64,000 bases of DNA, taken from the NCBI RefSeq assembly GCF_003019035.1, contig NZ_CP027447.1. One strand, given 5' to 3'. This stretch comes from Escherichia coli (GTDB lineage Bacteria; Pseudomonadota; Gammaproteobacteria; Enterobacterales; Enterobacteriaceae). How positions within the stretch are numbered: position 1 is the first letter of the stretch; each line of letters begins with the position of its first letter. The notes below the pieces were generated by a model. That model did not search any database. It saw only the letters and a list, made by a program, of their open reading frames with translations, and had not been told where the DNA came from. A program made the position numbers and the translations under genes. Below, in pieces: positions 25,286 to 41,352 of the stretch.

Positions 25286-25313
25286 AAAAGCCGTATTTAT
25301 TATTACGGCTTTA
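25286..25313 (-). terminator. kdp operon terminator
   Basis: AAAGCCGTAATAATAAATACGGCTTTTT on the minus strand, 35 bp after the kdpE stop. Confidence 0.6.
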
Positions 25314-25347
25314 ATTAATAAAAGGCAGGATGTATTAAAATTAATAT

Positions 25348-26025
25348 TCAAAGCATAAACCGATACCCAATACCGGTTTCAGTAATGAAATGGCGGGGGC
25401 GAGCGGGATCCTGTTCCAGTTTTTGTCGCAGATGTCCCATATAAATACGCAAATAATGGCTGTGTTCGACCGCGTTTGGCCCCCACACCTGGTTAAGGAG
25501 CTGGCGCTGGGTGAGCACTTTTCCGGCATTGTTGAGCAGCACCGCCAGCAGGCGAAACTCAATCGGGGTGAGATGCACCTCTTCCTCACCGCGATGGATC
25601 ACGCGGGCGGCTAAATCGACGGTCACATCGGAAAATTTCACCAGCGGATCGGGCGCGGTGGTGGCGGAGTGGCGGCGTAAAGCGACGCGCAGACGGGCCT
25701 GCAATTCGCCAATGCCAAACGGCTTACTCAGGTAATCATCCGCTCCGGCATCCAGCGCGGCGATTTTGTCGCTCTCTTCGCTGCGTGCGGAAAGCACAAT
25801 CACCGGCACCGCGCTCCACTGGCGCAGGTCGCGGATAAACTCAATCCCATCACCATCGGGCAGGCCGAGATCGAGAATAATCAAATCTGGCTTACGGGTT
25901 GCCGCTTCCAGCAAGCCGCGTTGCAGCGTTTCGGCCTCAAAGACGCGCATCCCGTCGCCCTCCAGCGCCGTGCGCAGAAAGCGACGAATAGCCTGTTCAT
26001 CTTCAACAATCAGAACGTTTGTCAC
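25348..26025 (-). CDS. kdpE: response regulator KdpE (OmpR family)
   Basis: 225 aa; receiver domain with D52-type site, winged-helix C-terminus. Confidence 0.95.
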   Translation of the reverse strand: MTNVLIVEDEQAIRRFLRTALEGDGMRVFEAETLQRGLLEAATRKPDLIILDLGLPDGDGIEFIRDLRQWSAVPVIVLSARSEESDKIAALDAGADDYLSKPFGIGELQARLRVALRRHSATTAPDPLVKFSDVTVDLAARVIHRGEEEVHLTPIEFRLLAVLLNNAGKVLTQRQLLNQVWGPNAVEHSHYLRIYMGHLRQKLEQDPARPRHFITETGIGYRFML

Positions 26026-31328: not shown

Positions 31329-31350
31329 ATTCAGTGCTCACTCAATATCA

Positions 31351-33024
31351 TCAGGAGAGATATTCCGCCACCGGACCAAGCGCCAGGGCAGGGATAAAGG
31401 TCAGTGCGCCAACCAGCAACACGGTGCCGATTAACAGGCCAACAAACAGCGGGCCGTGCGTTGGCAATGTGCCGGAGCTGGCGGGTTGGCTCTTTTTACT
31501 CACCAGCGAACCGGCAATTGCCATCACCGGGATAATCACCCCGAAGCGCCCGACAAACATGCACAACGCCAGTAAACAGTTCCAGAATGGAGAGTTGGCG
31601 CTTAATCCGGCAAAGGCGCTGCCGTTGTTGTTAGCGGCGGATGACACGGCGTACAGCACTTCGCTAAAACCATGCGGGCCAGGGTTGAGCATGGCGCTAC
31701 GTCCGGCGTCGGTCATCATTGCCAGCGCCGCGCCCATCAGCACCAGCGTCGGGGTGACCAGAATCGCCAGTGCAGTCAGTTTCATCTCGCGTACGTCGAT
31801 TTTTTTACCCAGATATTCCGGTGTACGACCAATCATCAGCCCGGCAATAAACACCGCCAGCAGGACAAACAGCATCATGCCGTAAAGGCCGGAACCGACG
31901 CCGCCGAATACCACTTCACCAATTTGCATCAACCACATCGGCACCATGCCACCAAGAGCGGTAAACGAATCATGCATCGCAATCACCGCGCCGCAGGAAG
32001 CCGCCGTAGTCACGACCGCAAACAGGCTACTGACCAGCACGCCGAAACGGCTCTCTTTACCTTCCATATTGATGCTGCTGTCCGCGCCGAGCGCCAGCAG
32101 ATGAGGATTACCCTGAACTTCTGCCCACATCACTACGCCTACGCAGATGACAAAAATCACCGACATCGCCCACAGCAACATGCGCCCCTGGCGACGATCG
32201 CCCGCCACTTCACCAAAGGCAAAGCACAGCGCTGTTGGGATCAAGAAAATCGCCAGCATTTGCACGAAGTTGGTCAGTGCGGTTGGGTTTTCAAACGGAT
32301 GCGACGAGTTGGCATTAAAGAAGCCACCGCCGTTAGTACCGAGCATCTTGATCGCTTCCTGAGAAGCTACTGGCCCCATTGGTAACAGCTGTTGCGCTCC
32401 TTCAATGGTCGTCACAGCCTGATAAGGCTGAAAGTTTTGCAGTGCACCTTGTTGAATAAAAAACAGTGCGATCAACAATGCCACAGGGGCTAACACCCAT
32501 AACGTGATGCGTAGCAGATCGACCCAGGCATTACCGAGCGTGCTCATGCTCTGGCGGGTAAACGCACGGATGAGGGCAAAAATCACCGCAATCCCGCTGG
32601 CGGCAGAAAGAAAGTTTTGCACCGTTAAGCCCGCCATCTGGCTGAAATAGCTCAACGTGGTTTCACCGCTATAAGATTGCCAGTTGGTATTCGTGACAAA
32701 GCTGACGGCGGTATTGAGCGCCAGATCCCACGACAGCCCCGGCAACTGCTGTGGATTAAGCGGCAAATAGTGCTGACCGAGCAACATAAAAAACAGCACC
32801 GCCAGCCCCAGCATATTCAGGCCAAGAATGGCTGAGAGATACTGCTTCCAGTTCATCTCGCGGTCAGAGACGCCAAGCGCGCTAAAGAGTACGCGTTCAA
32901 CGCCCGTCGTACCAGGAAGAGGAATATCATTAATCAGCCGCGCCAGCCCGCTGCCTAAAGGACGTGCCAGCACCATTAACACCAGTAAAAACGTGGCGAT
33001 CAGTAAGAACCCTTGCGCAGCCAT
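31351..33024 (-). CDS. kdpA: K+-transporting ATPase subunit A
   Basis: 557 aa from [16 protein letters not shown]; track ORF begins at an upstream ATG, trimmed. Confidence 0.9.
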
Positions 33025-33101
33025 CAGAACGCCTCCGCATTGATCAGGGCATAAACCAGATAACCCAGTAATAAAAACACCAGCAACACGCCTGCACTCA
33101 C
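33024..33101 (-). CDS. kdpF: kdpF-like small hydrophobic peptide, 25 codons, GTG start
   Basis: Own translation (V/M)[29 protein letters not shown] 6 nt upstream of GTG; stop overlaps the kdpA start. Confidence 0.5.
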
Positions 33102-33173
33102 AGTGCACCTCCAGTGGCCGAAAAGTGATATCGGAAGGGTAGAATTCTGGCTGCAAAGATTTCGCAAAAATCT

Positions 33174-33203
33174 GCGGGCGGGGTGTAAAAAAAGTATAAA
33201 AAT
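33174..33203 (-). promoter_or_regulatory. KdpE operator of the kdpFABC promoter
   Basis: Minus strand reads CATTTTTATACTTTTTTTACACCCCGCCCG, matching the KdpE-protected site as I recall it. Confidence 0.65.
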
Positions 33204-33413
33204 GGCAAAAGCCATGATTTAACTGATGGTTAGTATTAATTTAACTTTTGTGTAACTTAATTACAGTGTGAATGTAAATAAACCATCAATAAGCAAAAAT
33301 AAGTGGTCGGATGAGTAGTAAAATTACACAAAAGGCGGTACTATTTTCATCAGATAAACAAATTCATTTTTCCGGTGCCATTCACCGGGTAGATACAACA
33401 GGGGGAGAAAAGT

Positions 33414-33620
33414 ATGGAACTTTACAGAGAATATCCTGCATGGCTTATCTTTTTACGCCGTACTTATGCGGTTGCAGCGGGCGTTCTGGCGCTGCCTTTC
33501 ATGCTTTTCTGGAAAGACCGCGCCCGCTTTTACAGCTACCTGCACCGCGTCTGGTCGAAAACCAGCGAGAAACCGGTGTGGATGGATCAGGCCGAAAAGG
33601 CAACTGGTGATTTTTACTGA
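33414..33620 (+). CDS. ybfA: DUF2517 small protein
   Basis: 68 aa [20 protein letters not shown]... Confidence 0.8.
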
Positions 33621-33642
33621 TTGCTGAGTTCTGAATACATTG

Positions 33643-33675
33643 AAAACCGCCAGCGGAAACGCTGGCGGTTTTTTT
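33643..33675 (+). terminator. ybfA terminator
   Basis: AAAACCGCCAGCG-GAAA-CGCTGGCGGTTTTTTT. Confidence 0.7.
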
Positions 33676-33863
33676 GTATCAGGAAGATGTTCAGAGGAAT
33701 ATTTAGACACCGTTATACCAATCGAAACATATATTCATAAAACATATATAAATATTTTCCTAATTGTTTCTATCTGACGGATATCTCACTTAAGGCTTTC
33801 TTATAAATCTGTAGGGTTTCGCCTGTCAGCAGACAAATAACCCGATAAAACAAGGATGAGCAG

Positions 33864-36800
33864 ATGAGCGGAAAACCGGCGGCGCGTCAGGGCGACATGA
33901 CGCAGTATGGCGGTAGCATTGTTCAGGGTTCAGCCGGGGTACGTATTGGTGCTCCCACCGGCGTGGCCTGTTCGGTGTGCCCCGGCGGGGTGACGTCCGG
34001 CCATCCGGTCAATCCGCTGCTCGGTGCGAAGGTCCTTCCCGGCGAAACCGACCTTGCCCTGCCCGGCCCGCTGCCGTTCATCCTCTCCCGCACCTACAGC
34101 AGTTACCGGACAAAAACGCCCGCGCCGGTGGGGAGCCTCGGCCCCGGCTGGAAAATGCCCGCGGATATCCGCTTACAGCTGCGCGATAACACACTGATAC
34201 TCAGTGATAACGGCGGCAGGAGCCTGTATTTTGAGCACCTGTTTCCCGGTGAGGACGGTTACAGCCGCAGCGAGTCACTCTGGCTGGTGCGCGGCGGCGT
34301 GGCGAAACTGGATGAAGGTCACCGGCTGGCCGCACTCTGGCAGGCGCTGCCGGAAGAGCTTCGCCTGAGTCCGCATCGTTATCTGGCGACGAACAGTCCG
34401 CAGGGGCCGTGGTGGGTACTCGGCTGGTGTGAGCAGGTGCCGGAGGCGGATGAGGTGCTGCCCGCGCCGCTGCCGCCGTACCGGGTACTGACCGGGCTGG
34501 TGGACCGCTTCGGGCGCACACAGACGTTTCACCGTGAGGCTGGCGGTGAATTCAGCGGCGAAATCACCGGCGTGACGGATGGTGCCGGGCGTCACTTCCG
34601 GCTGGTACTGACCACGCAGGCGCTGCGGGCAGAAGAGGCCCGGCAGCAGGCCATTTCCGGCGGGACGGAACCGTCCGCTTTTCCTGATACCCTGCCGGAC
34701 TACACGGAATATGGCCGGGACAACGGCATCCGCCTGTCCGCCGTGTGGCTGACGCACGACCCGGAATATCCGGACAACCTGCCAGCCGCGCCGCTGGTAC
34801 GCTATGGCTGGACGCCACGCGGCGAACTGGCGGCGGTGTATGACCGCAGCGGCACACAGGTGCGCAGCTTTACTTACGATGATAAATACCGGGGCCGGAT
34901 GGTGGCGCACCGTCACACGGGCCGGCCGGAAATCCGTTACCGTTACGACAGCGACGGGCGGGTGACAGAACAGCTAAACCCGGCAGGCTTAAGCTACACG
35001 TATCAGTATGAGAAAGACCGCATCACCATCACCGACAGCCTGGACCGCCGTGAAGTCCTGCACACGCAGGGCGAAGGCGGGCTGAAGCGGGTGGTGAAAA
35101 AGGAACACGCGGACGGCAGCGTCACGCAGAGTCAGTTTGACGCGGTGGGCAGGCTTAAGGCACAGACGGATGCCGCAGGCCGGACGACTGAGTACAGCCC
35201 GGATGTGGTGACGGGACTCATCACGCGCATCACCACGCCGGATGGCAGGGCATCGGCGTTTTACTATAACCACCACAGCCAGTTAACGTCAGCCACCTGG
35301 CCTGACGGGCTGGAAATACGCCGGGAATATGATGAATCCGGCCGTCTGATTCAGGAAACCGCCCCTGACGGCGATATCACCCGCTACCGTTATGATAATC
35401 CACACAGTGACTTCCCCTGCGCAACGGAGGATGCCACCGGCAGCCGGAAAACCATGACGTGGAGCCGTTACGGTCAGTTGCTGACCTTCACCGACTGTTC
35501 CGGCTACCAGACCCGTTATGACCATGACCGCTTCGGGCAGATGACGGCGGTGCACCGCGAGGAAGGCCTGAGCCAGTGCCGCGCATACGACAGCCGTGGA
35601 CAGTTAATTGCGGTGAAAGACACGCAGGGCCATGAAACGCGGTATGAATACAACGCCGCCGGTGACCTGACCGCCGTCATTGCCCCGGACGGCAGCAGAA
35701 ACGGGGCACAGTACGATGCGTGGGGAAAGGCCGTCCGTACCACGCAGGGCGGGCTGACCCGCAGTATGGAATACGATGCTGCAGGACGGGTCATCCGCCT
35801 GACAAACGAAAACGGCAGCCACACCACCTTCCGTTACGATGTACTCGACCGGCTGATACAGGAAACCGGCTTTGACGGCCGCACACAGCGTTACCACCAC
35901 GACCTGACCGGCAAACTTATCCGCAGCGAGGATGAGGGGCTGGTCACCCACTGGCACTATGACGAAGCAGACCGCCTCACGCAGCGCACCGTGAATGGCG
36001 AAACCGCAGAGCGGTGGCAGTATGACGAACGCGGCTGGCTGACAGGCATCAGCCATCTCAGCGAAGGGCACCGGGTGACGGTGCATTACAGGTATGATGA
36101 GAAAGGCCGCCTGACCGGTGAGCGCCAGACGGTGCATCACCCGCAGACGGAAGCACTGCTCTGGCAGCATGAAACCAGACATGCGTACAATGCGCAGGGG
36201 CTGGCGAACCGCTGTATACCGGACAGCCTGCCCGCCGTGGAATGGCTGACTTATGGCAGTGGTTACCTGGCAGGGATGAAGCTGGGTGACTCGCCCCTGG
36301 TGGAGTACACCCGCGACCGCCTGCACCGGGAAACGCTGCGCAGCTTCGGCCGTTATGAACTCACCACCGCTTATACCCCTGCCGGGCAGTTACAGAGCCA
36401 GCACCTGAACAGCCTGCAGTATGACCGCGATTACACCTGGAACGACAACGGCGAACTCATTCGCATCAGCAGCCCGCGCCAGACCCGGAGTTACAGCTAC
36501 AGCGACTCCGGCAGGCTGACCGGCGTTCACACCACCGCAGCGAACCTGGATATCCGCATCCCGTATGCCACGGACCCGGCAGGTAACCGCCTGCCCGACC
36601 CGGAGCTGCACCCGGACAGCACCCTCAGCATGTGGCCGGATAACCGTATCGCCCGTGACGCGCACTATCTTTACCGGTATGACCGTCACGGCAGGCTGAC
36701 GGAGAAAACCGACCTCATCCCGGAAGGGGTTATCCGCACGGATGATGAGCGGACTCACCGGTACCATTACGACAGCCGGCACCGGCTGGTGCACTACACG

Positions 36801-38063
36801 CGGACACAATATGCAGAGCCGCTGGTCGAAAGTCGCTATCTTTACGACCCGCTGGGCCGCAGGGTGGCAAAACGGGTGTGGCGGCGTGAACGGGACCTGA
36901 CGGGCTGGATGTCGCTGTCACGGAAACCGGAAGTGACCTGGTACGGCTGGGACGGCGACCGGCTGACCACGATACAGAACGACAGAACCCGCATCCAGAC
37001 GATTTATCAGCCGGGGAGCTTCACGCCACTCATCAGGGTCGAAACTGCCACCGGTGAGCTGGCGAAAACGCAGCGCCGCAGCCTGGCGGATGCGCTTCAG
37101 CAGTCCGGCGGCGAAAACGGTGGCAGTGTGGTGTTCCCGCCGGTGCTGGTGCAGATGCTCGACCGGCTGGAAAGTGAAATCCTGGCTGACCGGGTGAGTG
37201 AGGAAAGCCGCCGCTGGCTGGCATCGTGCGGCCTGACGGTGGCGCAGATGCAAAACCAGATGGACCCGGTGTACACACCGGCGCGAAAAATCCACCTGTA
37301 CCACTGCGACCATCGCGGCCTGCCGCTGGCGCTTGTCAGCACGGAAGGGGCAACAGAATGGTGCGCAGAATACGATGAGTGGGGCAACCTGCTGAATGAA
37401 GAGAACCCGCACCAGCTGCAGCAGCTCATCCGCCTGCCGGGTCAGCAGTATGATGAGGAGTCCGGCCTGTATTACAACCGCCACCGCTATTATGACCCGC
37501 TGCAGGGGCGGTATATCACTCAGGATCCTATTGGGCTGAAGGGGGGATGGAATTTTTATCAGTATCCGTTGAATCCGGTTCAGTATATAGATTCAATGGG
37601 ACTGGCATCAAAATATGGACACTTAAATAATGGCGGATATGGAGCGAGACCCAACAAACCGCCTACGCCCGATCCAAGTAAATTGCCAGACATAGCGAAA
37701 CAATTAAGACTGCCATATCCTATTGACCAGGCCAGTAGTGCGCCTAATGTTTTCAAAACATTCTTCAGAGCATTAAGCCCTTACGACTACACACTGTATT
37801 GCAGGAAGTGGGTAAAACCAAATCTGACTTGTACGCCACAGGATGATCCCCAGTATCCAGGGATGGATACAAAGACAGCAAGTGATTACCTGCCACAGAC
37901 AAATTGGCCAACAACTCAATTACCACCAGGATATACTTGTGCAGAACCCTATTTATTCCCAGACATTAATAAACCCGATGGGCCAGCAACAGCAGGGATA
38001 GATGATTTGGGTGAAATTTTAGCTAAAATGAAACAGAGAACATCGAGAGGAATAAGAAAATGA
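33864..38063 (+). CDS. rhsC: Rhs-family polymorphic toxin (N-terminal PAAR-like region, YD-repeat shell, DPIGL core end, ~175-aa variable C-terminal tip)
   Basis: 1399 aa; PAARQGD motif at residues 5-11; GC-rich repeat core; DPIGL at 37523-37537; sharp GC drop after it; located after ybfA as rhsC is in K-12. Confidence 0.9.
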
Positions 38064-38629
38064 AAAGAATTTTGTTCTTTTTGCTGATGATATTTGTTAG
38101 TTTTGGTGTTATAGCTGATTGCGAAACACAAGCTAAAGATCAAGATTGCTTTACCATTTTCACTAAGGGTACTATTTTTTCCGCGTTTCCTGTCTTAAAT
38201 AATAAAACCATATGGAGATGGTATCAGAATGAGGACATAGGTGAGTATTATTGGCAAACAGAACTTGGTATATGTAAAAATAACAAATTCACACCAAGCG
38301 GGGCGAGACTCTTAATTCGCGTCGGATCACTACGCCTTAATGAAAATCATGCAACCAAAGGAACGTTGCAGGAGTTGCTAAATACAGCAGAAAAAACGGC
38401 GTTTCTCGGCGATCGGTTTAGAAGTTATATAAGAGCGGGTATCTATCAAAAAAAGAGCAGTGATCCAGCTCAGTTGTTGGCAGTCCTTGATAATTCAATC
38501 ATGGTTAAATATTTTAAAGATGAGAAGCCAACTTATGCTCGAATGACAGCACATCTCCCGAACAAAGATGAGTCTTACGAATGTTTAACAAAAGTACAGC
38601 ATGAACTGCTTCGTAGTGAAGAAAAATAA
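38060..38629 (+). CDS. predicted cognate immunity protein of the Rhs tip (signal-peptide bearing)
   Basis: 189 aa; start overlaps the rhs stop (ATGA); N-terminal [19 protein letters not shown] hydrophobic signal; AT-rich like the toxin tip. Confidence 0.55.
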
Positions 38630-38797
38630 AATCTCTTCCTGAGAAAATAAATTAACTATTCGAAAAAATATGTTCTTAATGGGTATCCAGGTACACCAGA
38701 AGGTCGATTTGGAAAAATGGATTCCGATGGTAAGAATATCATATATTCTGAATGTAATGTTTTACCCACAACTTTTGAGATTCGATAGGTGTAGAGC

Positions 38798-39100
38798 ATG
38801 AGAAACTCACTAATATTACTTATTATGATATTGTTTACAATATCACACTCAGTATTTGGAAAAGAAAATTCAGTGGAAATTTTAGTAAATAGTCGTGAAA
38901 TGGCTTTGGAATTATCATATGTTTACATTAAATATGTATACGGGAAAGAAAAAGCAGAATTTCAGAAACCATATAGTATTACAGATGACAATAATTGTTG
39001 GAAAATCGAGGGAAAACAACCGAAGACGTTAGGAGGAAATTTTACAATACTAATAGCGAAAAAAGATGGGCAAGTGTTGAATGTAATACACACAAAATAA
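38798..39100 (+). CDS. small secreted protein, likely orphan immunity protein
   Basis: 100 aa with signal peptide MRNSLILLIMILFTISHSVFG; AT-rich; lies directly after a start-less toxin-tip-like reading frame (38651-38788). Confidence 0.45.
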   Translation: MRNSLILLIMILFTISHSVFGKENSVEILVNSREMALELSYVYIKYVYGKEKAEFQKPYSITDDNNCWKIEGKQPKTLGGNFTILIAKKDGQVLNVIHTK

Positions 39101-39279
39101 TCCACTGTACAGTCGATTCAAATATTTTACCAAGGTGTGTTTTGTAACAATTTTGTGTACAATATGACTCTACATATCGACGAAAAAACCACTTGATTTG
39201 ACAGGAACACATTCAAAAAAATTTCTTTATTCATTTCAGGAGCGATTTTCATCTGTTACTTGAAGTATCTGTGAGATTA

Positions 39280-39645
39280 AGTGACTCCCCCTAACGTCGT
39301 ACTAAATAGTAATTACTGTCCATACCGGGAGCAGTATTCGGCGCTCCCCACATGCAGCAGAATAACCGCATCAGCGAAGATGTATTGTATTTTTACTATC
39401 ACAATGTGTACGGACGGTTTATGGAAAAGAATGAAAATTAGATACGCGATGGGGCGGCAGGTTACACGGTTATCACTACGATAGCCAATACTGGCTGGTG
39501 CATTACCGCCGTGAACAATAGGACGCCGTACTGCTGGAAATTTCTTACCTTTATGACTCCCCGCGCCGCCGTATTGGGAAACGGGAAGCAATCAAGATGA
39601 GGCTGATATAATGTGCGGAATGCCTGAGTATTTTTAGAATAGGGG
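39280..39645 (+). pseudogene. decayed fragment of a divergent Rhs core
   Basis: GC-rich island in an AT-rich stretch; frames read YHYDSQYWLVHYRREQ* and LYDSPRRRIGKRE, resembling the core segment [12 protein letters not shown]...[12 protein letters not shown] of the intact rhs, with stops and frameshifts. Confidence 0.5.
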
Positions 39646-39651
39646 GGTAAT

Positions 39652-40053
39652 ATGTTTGATAGAATATATCTTGGTGATCGAGCAATAAAAAAAATTGAAT
39701 TTTATTTATGGACTAAACAAATTAGAATTCAGGTTAATTTAATCTCAAGGATAGCCTATGGTACAACAGAATGGAATTTTTATGATAATGAAGACTTAGA
39801 AGATGGTTATTTGGTATTTTCAGATGTTAGTTTCTTCAATATAACTCCTAATGGCTCTATTCCTGATGATTATATAATTTCAATAATTACAGATAATGTC
39901 AATGTTGAATATTTTGAATCAACTATAGTTGCAGTTGGACAAATTCCAAATACAAATTCTGGAGACATTGATAATATTGGTGAGTGTCAAATTTTCATCA
40001 GGTATAAACACAGCTGGATTGAGAATAAATTCAAAGAAAAAATAATTGAATAA
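39652..40053 (+). CDS. hypothetical cytoplasmic protein, possible orphan immunity protein
   Basis: 133 aa; GGGGGG Shine-Dalgarno; very AT-rich; sits immediately after the decayed Rhs fragment. Confidence 0.45.
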   Translation: MFDRIYLGDRAIKKIEFYLWTKQIRIQVNLISRIAYGTTEWNFYDNEDLEDGYLVFSDVSFFNITPNGSIPDDYIISIITDNVNVEYFESTIVAVGQIPNTNSGDIDNIGECQIFIRYKHSWIENKFKEKIIE

Positions 40054-40145
40054 CCATGTTATGTATAGACATTTTAGATGGAACGAACCAGAGGAAGGCA
40101 TGCCTCCGACTTGGGTTATATGGGCACGGAGTTTTAGTGTAGTGA

Positions 40146-40400
40146 ACTCAACGACGCAAACCGAATAACCTGCCGCTGGCGCTTATCAGCACGGAAGGGG
40201 CAACAGAATGGTGCGCAGAATACGATGAATGGGGCAACCTGCTGAATGAAGAGAACCCGCACCAGCTGCAGCAGCTCATCCGCCTGCCGGGTCAGCAGTA
40301 TGATGAGGAGTCCGGCCTGTATTACAACCGCCACCGCTATTATGACCCGCTGCAGGGGCCAGGGAAAGATCACGTAACGCTGCTTTTTTGTACTAAATAA
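40146..40400 (+). pseudogene. start-less orphan Rhs core-end fragment with alternative 13-aa tip
   Basis: 40170-40358 is nearly identical to 37319-37507 of the intact rhs ([63 protein letters not shown]), then diverges to [13 protein letters not shown]; in-frame stop at 40143 and no start codon. Confidence 0.7.
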
Positions 40401-40503
40401 TTCGCATTTTATGTTTAAAAATTGAGATATTCCTCATTACCTAAAGCTGTTTTTCATTGCTTATACATGATCAAATACTCCTTACATAATTAAGGAGAAC
40501 AAA

Positions 40504-41352
40504 ATGGAACTTAAAAAATTGATGGAGCATATTTCTATTATCCCAGATTACAGACAAGCCTGGAAAGTGGAACATAAATTGTCTGATATTCTACTGTTGA
40601 CTATTTGTGACGTTATTTCTGGTGCAGAAGGTTGGGAAGATATAGAGGATTTTGGGGAAACACATCTCGATTTTTTAAAACAATATGGTGATTTTGAAAA
40701 TGGTATTCCTGTTCACGATACCATTGCCAGAGTTGTATCCTGTATCAGTCCTGCAAAATTTCACGAGTGCTTTATTAACTGGATGCGTGACTGCCATTCT
40801 TCAGATGATAAAGACGTCATTGCAATTGATGGAAAAACGCTCCGGCACTCTTATGACAAGAGTCGCCGCAAGGGAGCGATTCATGTCATTAGTGCGTTCT
40901 CAACAATGCACAGTCTGGTCATCGGACAGATCAAGACGGATGAGAAATCCAATGAGATCACAGCTATCCCGGAACTTCTTAACATGCTGAATATTAAAGG
41001 AAAAATCATCACAACTGATGCGATGGGTTGCCAGAAAGATATTGCAGAGAAGATACAAAAACAGGGCGGTGATTATTTATTCGCTGTAAAAGGAAACCAG
41101 GGGCGGCTAAATAAAGCCTTCGAGGAAAAATTTCCGCTGAAAGAATTAAATAATCCAGAGCATGGCAGTTACGCAATGAGTGAAAAGAGTCACGGCAGAG
41201 AAGAAATCCGTCTTCATATTGTTTGCGATGTCCCTGATGAACTTATTGATTTCACGTTTGAATGGAAAGGGCAGCCATGGACAGAAAATATCTGGCGTCA
41301 GTCCTTGCGGGGAGCGTGCTTTCGTAATTTTGCCCTGCTACAACAGGATTAA
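40504..41352 (+). mobile_element. ybfD: H-repeat-associated (ISAs1-family) transposase gene, internally deleted derivative (ybfD-like)
   Basis: 282-aa [35 protein letters not shown]... running into an out-of-frame tail; a 16-codon frame (41277-41327, [16 protein letters not shown]) that I recall as the C-terminus of full-length H-repeat proteins lies in another frame. Confidence 0.7.

Follow-up and report, generated by a model that had tools for sequence, protein, structure and literature searches.

Why does the base composition of the Escherichia coli chromosome drop abruptly near position 37,500 of the 64,000-nt stretch analysed here (NCBI RefSeq assembly GCF_003019035.1, contig NZ_CP027447.1; hereafter the window)? 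A sequence-only reading had placed a sharp fall in G+C (GC) content at this point, between the core of an Rhs gene and 2.6 kb of AT-rich DNA, and had taken it as the signature of horizontally acquired toxin/immunity cargo. We conclude, with a probability of about 0.9, that the break marks where core meets tip in the E. coli RhsC element, with exchangeable toxin/immunity modules downstream. The gene lies at the RhsC site, flanked by kdp/ybfA on one side and ybgA/phr on the other; H-repeat (ISAs1) remnants are present, and annotation of an identical genome and of K-12 gives the order kdp-ybfA-rhs-ybfD-ybgA-phrB. The AT-rich interval is 100% identical in several complete E. coli genomes, with kdpFABC-ybfA and ybfD-ybgA-phrB as its flanks, and the remaining window is ordinary E. 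coli chromosome. The features around the break are the following.

33864..38063, plus strand: Rhs gene open reading frame (ORF), 1399 amino acids (aa)
33864..37538, plus strand: Rhs core, with DUF6531, a YD-repeat shell and the RHS-associated core, up to the motif DPIGL; GC 0.629, GC at third codon positions (GC3) 0.744
37524..37538, plus strand: first aspartyl-protease motif, DPIGL, aa 1221-1225
37539..37604, plus strand: linker of 17 residues and second motif, DSMGL (37590-37604); already AT-rich
37605..38063, plus strand: toxin domain, ybfO-type tip, 152 aa (aa 1248-1399), GC 0.43
38060..38629, plus strand: ybfC, presumed cognate immunity gene, 189 aa, GC 0.372

The step is large by every measure applied, and the condition that the sequence-only reading had named as its refutation, no significant GC step at ~37.5 kb, was not borne out. 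A 300-nt sliding profile ran at 0.58-0.68 over 33.9-37.5 kb and then at 0.29-0.47 to ~40.1 kb; by segment, GC was 0.629 in the Rhs core (33864-37499), 0.370 in the interval 37500-40130 and 0.516 in the whole window. With 2-kb arms, the left-minus-right difference at the break was 0.246, the highest anywhere in the window. With 1-kb arms it was 0.226, exceeded only by the step at the gene's own 5′ edge (33868); steps of this scale in host DNA beyond 32.8-42.5 kb reached 0.192 at most. The refined AT-rich interval, 37547-40168, comprises 2622 nt at GC 0.367, which bears out the 2.6 kb first described between the Rhs core and an orphan core repeat.

Codon usage, which the same reading had proposed as a check, points the same way. 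Against a host reference GC3 of 0.572 ± 0.059 (28 host ORFs), GC3 was 0.744 in the core, 0.33-0.35 in the tip, 0.328 in ybfC and 0.240 and 0.173 in two genes further downstream that encode an NTF2-fold and a DUF6258 protein, respectively. The GC3 z-scores ran from +2.9 to −6.8, and relative to host genes the core lay 2.9 to 3.2 standard deviations (SD) above and the cargo genes 3.3 to 8.5 SD below. As the shift is seen at third codon positions, the step is not merely a matter of amino-acid content. A chance fluctuation was also considered as its source and was ruled out by the ranking of step sizes together with GC3 relative to the host.

A two-segment maximum-likelihood fit (log-likelihood gain 121) placed the change point at 37547-37551, ~10 nt 3′ of the DPIGL codons, with a support interval of two log-likelihood units spanning 37510-37554. 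The break is therefore locatable to ~45 nt: its position at DPIGL stands, but the resolution of a few bases claimed for it is finer than composition statistics can reach. Nucleotide homology to the alternative K-12 rhsC tip stops at ~37578, beyond which identity drops to 23-42%, and predicted proteolysis falls at 37604/37605, giving three nested boundaries for composition, tip homology and cleavage. Given that homology ends at the conserved core end, two compositional histories abut within a few tens of bases.

The protein on either side of the break has the architecture of an Rhs element. Pfam recognized 11 stretches of RHS_repeat, DUF6531 and the RHS-associated core PF03527 in the ORF; the core is 95.4% identical to that of K-12 rhsC and measures 1225 aa to DPIGL, in keeping with the ~1200-aa G+C-rich YD/RHS-repeat core of such elements. 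The extension past DPIGL is 174 aa long with GC 0.427, matching the description of Rhs elements as a G+C-rich core followed by a divergent A+T-rich core-extension of 130-177 aa (Jackson et al. 2009, PMC2935791). DPIGL itself conforms to the DPxGL ending of Rhs cores, and the longer literal pattern PxxxxDPxGL found no match in the ORF. The two K-12 counterparts descend in the same manner, from core (0.618) through tip (0.405) to ybfB (0.312) for rhsC and from 0.613 through 0.43 to 0.367 (ybfC) for ybfO.

Two protease-type motifs stand before the toxin, and the NCBIfam RHS_core match includes the 22 residues of the linker and DSMGL. In Photorhabdus laumondii Rhs1, two DPLGL motifs lie 17 residues apart, cleavage occurs after the second and the catalytic Asp belongs to the second (Jurenas et al. 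2021, PMC8636562). By analogy, autocleavage is predicted after L1247, which would make A1248 (nt 37605) the first residue of the freed toxin, so that the functional toxin boundary probably follows DSMGL rather than DPIGL. Since DSMGL lies beyond the end of homology at ~37578, each tip may carry its own copy of the catalytic-Asp motif.

The step at the 5′ edge of the Rhs gene (33000-33868) is equally large and opposite in direction, and with ybfA and the intergenic DNA upstream at GC 0.42, the GC-rich core is bordered by AT-rich DNA on both sides. These values, together with a core 11 points over the window mean and 2.9 SD over host genes in GC3, would suit a foreign GC-rich core inserted in ordinary DNA, with the downstream DNA native. 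The downstream DNA, however, lies 15 points under the window mean, its genes fall 4-7 SD under host GC3, and it is absent or different in many strains. An alien core is thus not supported as the sole explanation, and we consider it very improbable as such; it is retained as part of a double anomaly, the core (GC 0.629) departing from E. coli norms no less than the cargo does.

The DNA after the core has the make-up of toxin/immunity cargo. The tip and ybfC are 97.3% identical to K-12 ybfO-ybfC, and the ybfC start overlaps the Rhs stop by 4 nt (ATGA), as expected of a small ORF directly after a tip. The toxin family is marked by three conserved Cys residues and a basic C-terminal tail. The family is very rare: an exhaustive HMMER search of 1.84 billion proteins returned only 28 cluster representatives related to the tip, and those whose sequence extends upstream carry Rhs core there. 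In two metagenome loci (L006, L009), genes for toxin homologues (37-44% identity) are followed by genes for YbfC homologues (30-33%), again overlapping by 4 nt, and in a Delftia locus (L014) a YbfC homologue (~27%) follows a toxin homologue (33%) after a 1-nt gap. The toxin-YbfC adjacency is thereby conserved in four independent lineages (27-40% identity), and on these sequence comparisons we presume the tip and YbfC to be a cognate polymorphic toxin/immunity pair.

All 26 aligned members of the YbfC family have a hydrophobic, signal-like N-terminus. Because the immunity family bears a signal for export and cysteines are conserved in toxin and immunity protein alike, the toxin would act in the periplasm. 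The AlphaFold2 (AF2) model of YbfC is a β-sandwich (predicted local distance difference test, pLDDT, 87) with generic Ig-like matches only and no specific structural neighbour. A search of the literature on ybfO, ybfC and DUF6258 found no functional study. That aa 1248-1399 and YbfC make up an uncharacterised Rhs toxin/immunity family, acting in the periplasm and without a known fold, is a tentative proposal to which we give slightly less than even odds.

Downstream of ybfC, the AT-rich interval continues as a series of orphaned and decayed modules.

38660..38785, plus strand: possible 3′ toxin stub upstream of the NTF2 gene, speculative; open 42-codon tail (…YVLNGYPGTPEGRFGKMDSDGKNIIYSECNVLPTTFEIR*)
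38798..39100, plus strand: orphan immunity gene, NTF2 fold (Imm-NTF2-2), 100 aa, GC 0.293
39352..39584, plus strand: decayed divergent Rhs core fragment, corresponding to core aa 923-1004 and broken by a frameshift and an in-frame stop codon; GC 0.468
39584..39634, plus strand: toxin stub, the last 17 codons of a deleted Rhs tip (GSNQDEADIMCGMPEYF*)
39652..40053, plus strand: orphan DUF6258 gene, presumed immunity gene of the deleted tip, 133 aa, GC 0.271, GC3 0.173
40169..40359, plus strand: orphan Rhs core fragment, 191 nt, core aa 1151-1215, GC 0.597
40360..41352, plus strand: ISAs1-family (H-repeat) remnant with a ybfD pseudogene, which cuts off the orphan core fragment

The first of the two orphan genes is assigned by Pfam (PF15631, E=2e-20, 73.1 bits against a cutoff of 26) and is named "NTF2 fold immunity protein" in RefSeq. 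The ORF read from ATG 38798 has a signal-peptide-like N-terminus (MRNSLILLIMILFTISHSVFG); RefSeq starts the gene at GTG 38873, and annotated lengths vary between strains. The 42-codon tail ends 12 nt 5′ of this ORF, and a protein search with it (38660-38785) recovered near-identical short fragments of the same stub only and no intact parent.

For the second orphan gene (PF19772, E=1.4e-24, 87.1 bits against a cutoff of 25), another strain preserves a fuller arrangement. The RhsA locus of UTAK-1 (our locus L010, 6486-7474) contains a 190-aa tip without a Pfam family, then 14 nt, then a DUF6258 gene 99% identical to that of the window, and the 17-codon stub is the identical tail of this tip ORF (L010 6486-7058). 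The UTAK-1 tip is likely the cognate toxin of DUF6258, judged by this arrangement, and an immunity role for DUF6258 is suggested by its position after an Rhs tip in UTAK-1 only. The main Rhs gene of UTAK-1 is annotated as frameshifted.

Positions 39580-40359 of the window align with L010 7001-7780 at 98.7% identity. The orphan 191-nt core fragment repeats 37319-37509 at 99% identity; it is cut short on either side and has neither DPxGL nor a tip. Its UTAK-1 counterpart runs on into a tip and yibG, while in the window the homology stops at 40359/40360, where the ISAs1 sequence starts. This remnant carries Pfam DDE_Tnp_1_assoc and DDE_Tnp_1, is annotated in RefSeq as "ISAs1 family transposase, missing C-terminus" and is homologous to K-12 ybfQ/ybfL/ybfD. 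The low-GC trough resumes past the core fragment and extends through the ISAs1 remnant at GC 0.394 to ~41.36 kb.

The decayed fragment, which the sequence-only reading had singled out as the GC exception within the AT-rich DNA, is indeed a piece of Rhs core: against the local Rhs protein, blastx aligned 42 aa of it in one frame (55% identity) and 28 aa in another (39%). At blastn sensitivity it showed no other paralogue in E. coli, and it occurs in 844 genomes, always within the block that runs from the NTF2 to the DUF6258 gene. Searches of the AT-rich stretch for promoter-like sites (12 against 10.9 expected) and terminator-like sites (3 against 2.4 expected) stayed at chance level, and an Rfam search gave no match.

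About half of the interval thus consists of relics, namely gene stubs, the decayed core fragment and spacers, with GC 0.33-0.47. This share qualifies the description of the interval as toxin/immunity cargo, as the relics are not working cargo. It also raises the question of whether low GC reflects mutational decay, with a GC-to-AT bias acting on non-functional DNA behind the Rhs gene. The intact ORFs, however, are the most AT-rich parts (0.293 for NTF2 and 0.271 for DUF6258), and GC is low at their first (0.36-0.37) and second (0.27-0.28) codon positions too, meaning that the bias reaches protein composition. Moreover, AT-richness is lowest in the decayed core fragment (GC 0.468), and the NTF2-DUF6258 block is 95-98% conserved over >800 genomes. 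Because the intact ORFs are the most AT-rich, and low even at the first two codon positions, decay cannot explain the AT-richness; their composition largely refuted pseudogene decay as its cause, and we regard that explanation as hardly tenable.

The cargo varies among strains, as seen across 5426 complete E. coli genomes. The tip with ybfC occurs in 3615 of them (67%) at 95-99% identity, the NTF2-DUF6258 block in 878, and a K-12-type tip with ybfB in 2527 (at least 80% coverage). The arrangement of O157:H7 is that of the window. In strain 190693, the RhsB locus, flanked by nikR and yhhJ, holds the whole array of tip, ybfC-like, NTF2 and DUF6258 genes (95.5% identity), and in UTAK-1 the DUF6258 block is found at the RhsA locus behind an intact tip. 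The varying genome counts, together with the RhsB array of 190693, indicate a polymorphic cargo that moves from one Rhs locus to another. Within E. coli the cassette is both widespread and old, and homologous toxin/immunity pairs were found in Salmonella, Citrobacter, Kluyvera, Delftia and Ralstonia. Gene content and the changes of strain and locus therefore support the horizontal origin first proposed for the cargo, whereas composition alone is no proof of recent acquisition.

How could such an array arise? The conserved GC-rich part upstream encodes the YD-repeat shell and an aspartyl-protease plug, and the attached toxin tip, with its translationally coupled, export-signal-bearing ybfC, heads an AT-rich array of modules. 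By C-terminal displacement, an incoming tip and immunity gene on a piece of core would recombine through core homology, each new module pushing older tips downstream, and recombination between core copies could re-attach or delete tips. The NTF2-fold and DUF6258 immunity genes would then be orphans whose toxins were deleted down to stubs. An integrase-borne island was considered as well and was ruled out by the content of the borders, which hold neither integrase nor tRNA; apart from the 191-nt core fragment there is no direct repeat, and apart from the truncated ISAs1 no trace of a mobile element, and recombination through core homology explains acquisition better.

The closest known system is the K-12 RhsC element (rhsC-ybfB-ybfO-ybfC-H-repeats), which shares the site, the core/tip GC step and the ISAs1 H-repeat remnants. 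In K-12, however, the ybfO tip is a displaced orphan behind another main tip and ybfB, whereas here it is fused to the full-length core; the K-12 main tip and ybfB are absent from the window, and K-12 lacks positions 38672-40358, a span that includes both orphan immunity genes (NTF2 and DUF6258), the decayed core between them and the 191-nt core fragment. Displacement arrays have been described in which the low-GC trough spans kilobases downstream of the core and GC peaks mark dissociated tips, some of them degenerate (PMC2935791). The Serratia marcescens SMA1610 array from that work resembles ours in its GC-rich core, AT-rich tip, long trough and core-fragment GC peaks. Compared with those arrays, the two downstream modules here are nearly stripped of core and toxin, with the immunity genes left, and the last core fragment is cut by an insertion sequence element.

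Recombination between main and orphan tips has been observed experimentally in Salmonella Typhimurium LT2 rhs (Koskiniemi et al. 2014, PMC3967940). There too, a tip is an orphan in one strain and fused to a full-length core in others, and core homology provides the substrate; by contrast, recombination at our locus is deduced from strain comparison, and the toxin family differs. P. laumondii Rhs1/Tre23 (PMC8636562) resembles the protein of the window in its YD shell, its aspartyl-protease plug and its two D-x-x-G-L motifs 17 residues apart before the toxin, and a profile that includes the core end matched the solved chains of type VI secretion system (T6SS) Rhs effectors 7q97, 8h8b and 8qjc; a sequence profile search of the PDB matched the core part of the Rhs protein only, without a toxin match. 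Rhs1/Tre23 differs in that the window has DSMGL, an unrelated toxin domain and an export-signal-bearing immunity protein, and no vgrG, EagR or clear PAAR. In the Delftia homologue, unlike here, Rhs lies directly downstream of vgrG (Delftia acidovorans, L014 1524-7508, in the order vgrG, Rhs of 1491 aa, YbfC-like gene, 292-aa gene, orphan Rhs). A T6SS may deliver the toxin.

No observation contradicts the overall reading of a core/tip junction with exchangeable toxin/immunity modules, but it has weak points. The second motif is DSMGL instead of the canonical DPLGL found in K-12 rhsC, so that cleavage is assumed. The tip belongs to no toxin family in Pfam or NCBIfam, its AF2 model reached a pLDDT of only 61, and Foldseek returned nothing from the PDB at E<2. 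The N-terminal PAAR motif was sub-threshold, scoring 16 bits (E=0.014) where the cutoff is 27, and the 64-kb window contains neither vgrG nor any T6SS gene. No low-GC donor of the cargo was identified, and the order of events could be either gain of the K-12 tip or loss of that tip here by core-orphan recombination.

What, then, does the low GC of the cargo mean? Composition bears on this through distant relatives. In Delftia, where the background is 62-70%, GC falls from 0.684 in the core to 0.476 in the tip and 0.345 in the immunity gene, within a 2.1-kb trough of 0.34-0.52, and the metagenome relatives show the same gradient from core through tip to immunity gene. As the Delftia counterpart, at only 27-33% amino-acid identity, is equally low in GC (0.35-0.48), AT-richness is a lasting property of the cassette family irrespective of host. 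This opens another explanation, in which AT-richness is not the trace of a low-GC donor but is kept by selection or a cassette-specific bias, for example through H-NS-like silencing, low expression or a mobile AT-rich gene pool. The E. coli cassette, present in two thirds of genomes at 95-99% identity yet without drift toward host GC, agrees with this, and the equal AT-richness in E. coli and high-GC Delftia suggests that it may be actively maintained, e.g. by H-NS-type silencing. Continuous exchange through a shared low-GC pool would look alike, however, and selection would complement rather than replace horizontal exchange, which the changes of locus and strain demonstrate independently. We therefore treat maintained AT-richness as possible, with the odds leaning distinctly against it. 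The low GC is consistent with a mobile pool held in common, with selection for AT-richness, or with the two together, and composition does not date the acquisition; were AT-richness kept in this way, the step would persist indefinitely and say nothing of the time of arrival.

Three features elsewhere in the window are recorded here for completeness. Two smaller GC steps are ordinary E. coli features: one at 25300-25500, at the speFL leader/intergenic region beside kdpE, and one within 50000-55000, at the border between the abrB region and the fimbrial operon ybgO-ybgP-ybgQ (GC 0.42-0.52). In addition, the kdpA/kdpB coordinates (~31338-33864) are shifted by 13 nt from those of DETEC-S792 (NZ_CP116067.1), a genome that is otherwise identical; this indicates that a small indel upstream of the Rhs gene separates both sequences.

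That Rhs genes combine a GC-rich core with an AT-rich tip has been known since the 1990s. These features, and the low-GC trough formed downstream by displaced tips, are textbook knowledge and are used to delimit modules; the composition break is an already known feature, correctly read, and carries little weight as a discovery. Its use lies in annotation. The composition, homology and predicted cleavage boundaries are now placed precisely, two orphan immunity genes without toxins and their accompanying relics are identified, and a tip that is a silent orphan in K-12 is seen to sit on a full-length Rhs protein in this strain. The orphan immunity genes may serve a protective role. The point of interest for the biology of E. 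coli is the activity of the ybfO-type toxin and its export-signal-bearing immunity partner, a pair present in two thirds of E. coli genomes.

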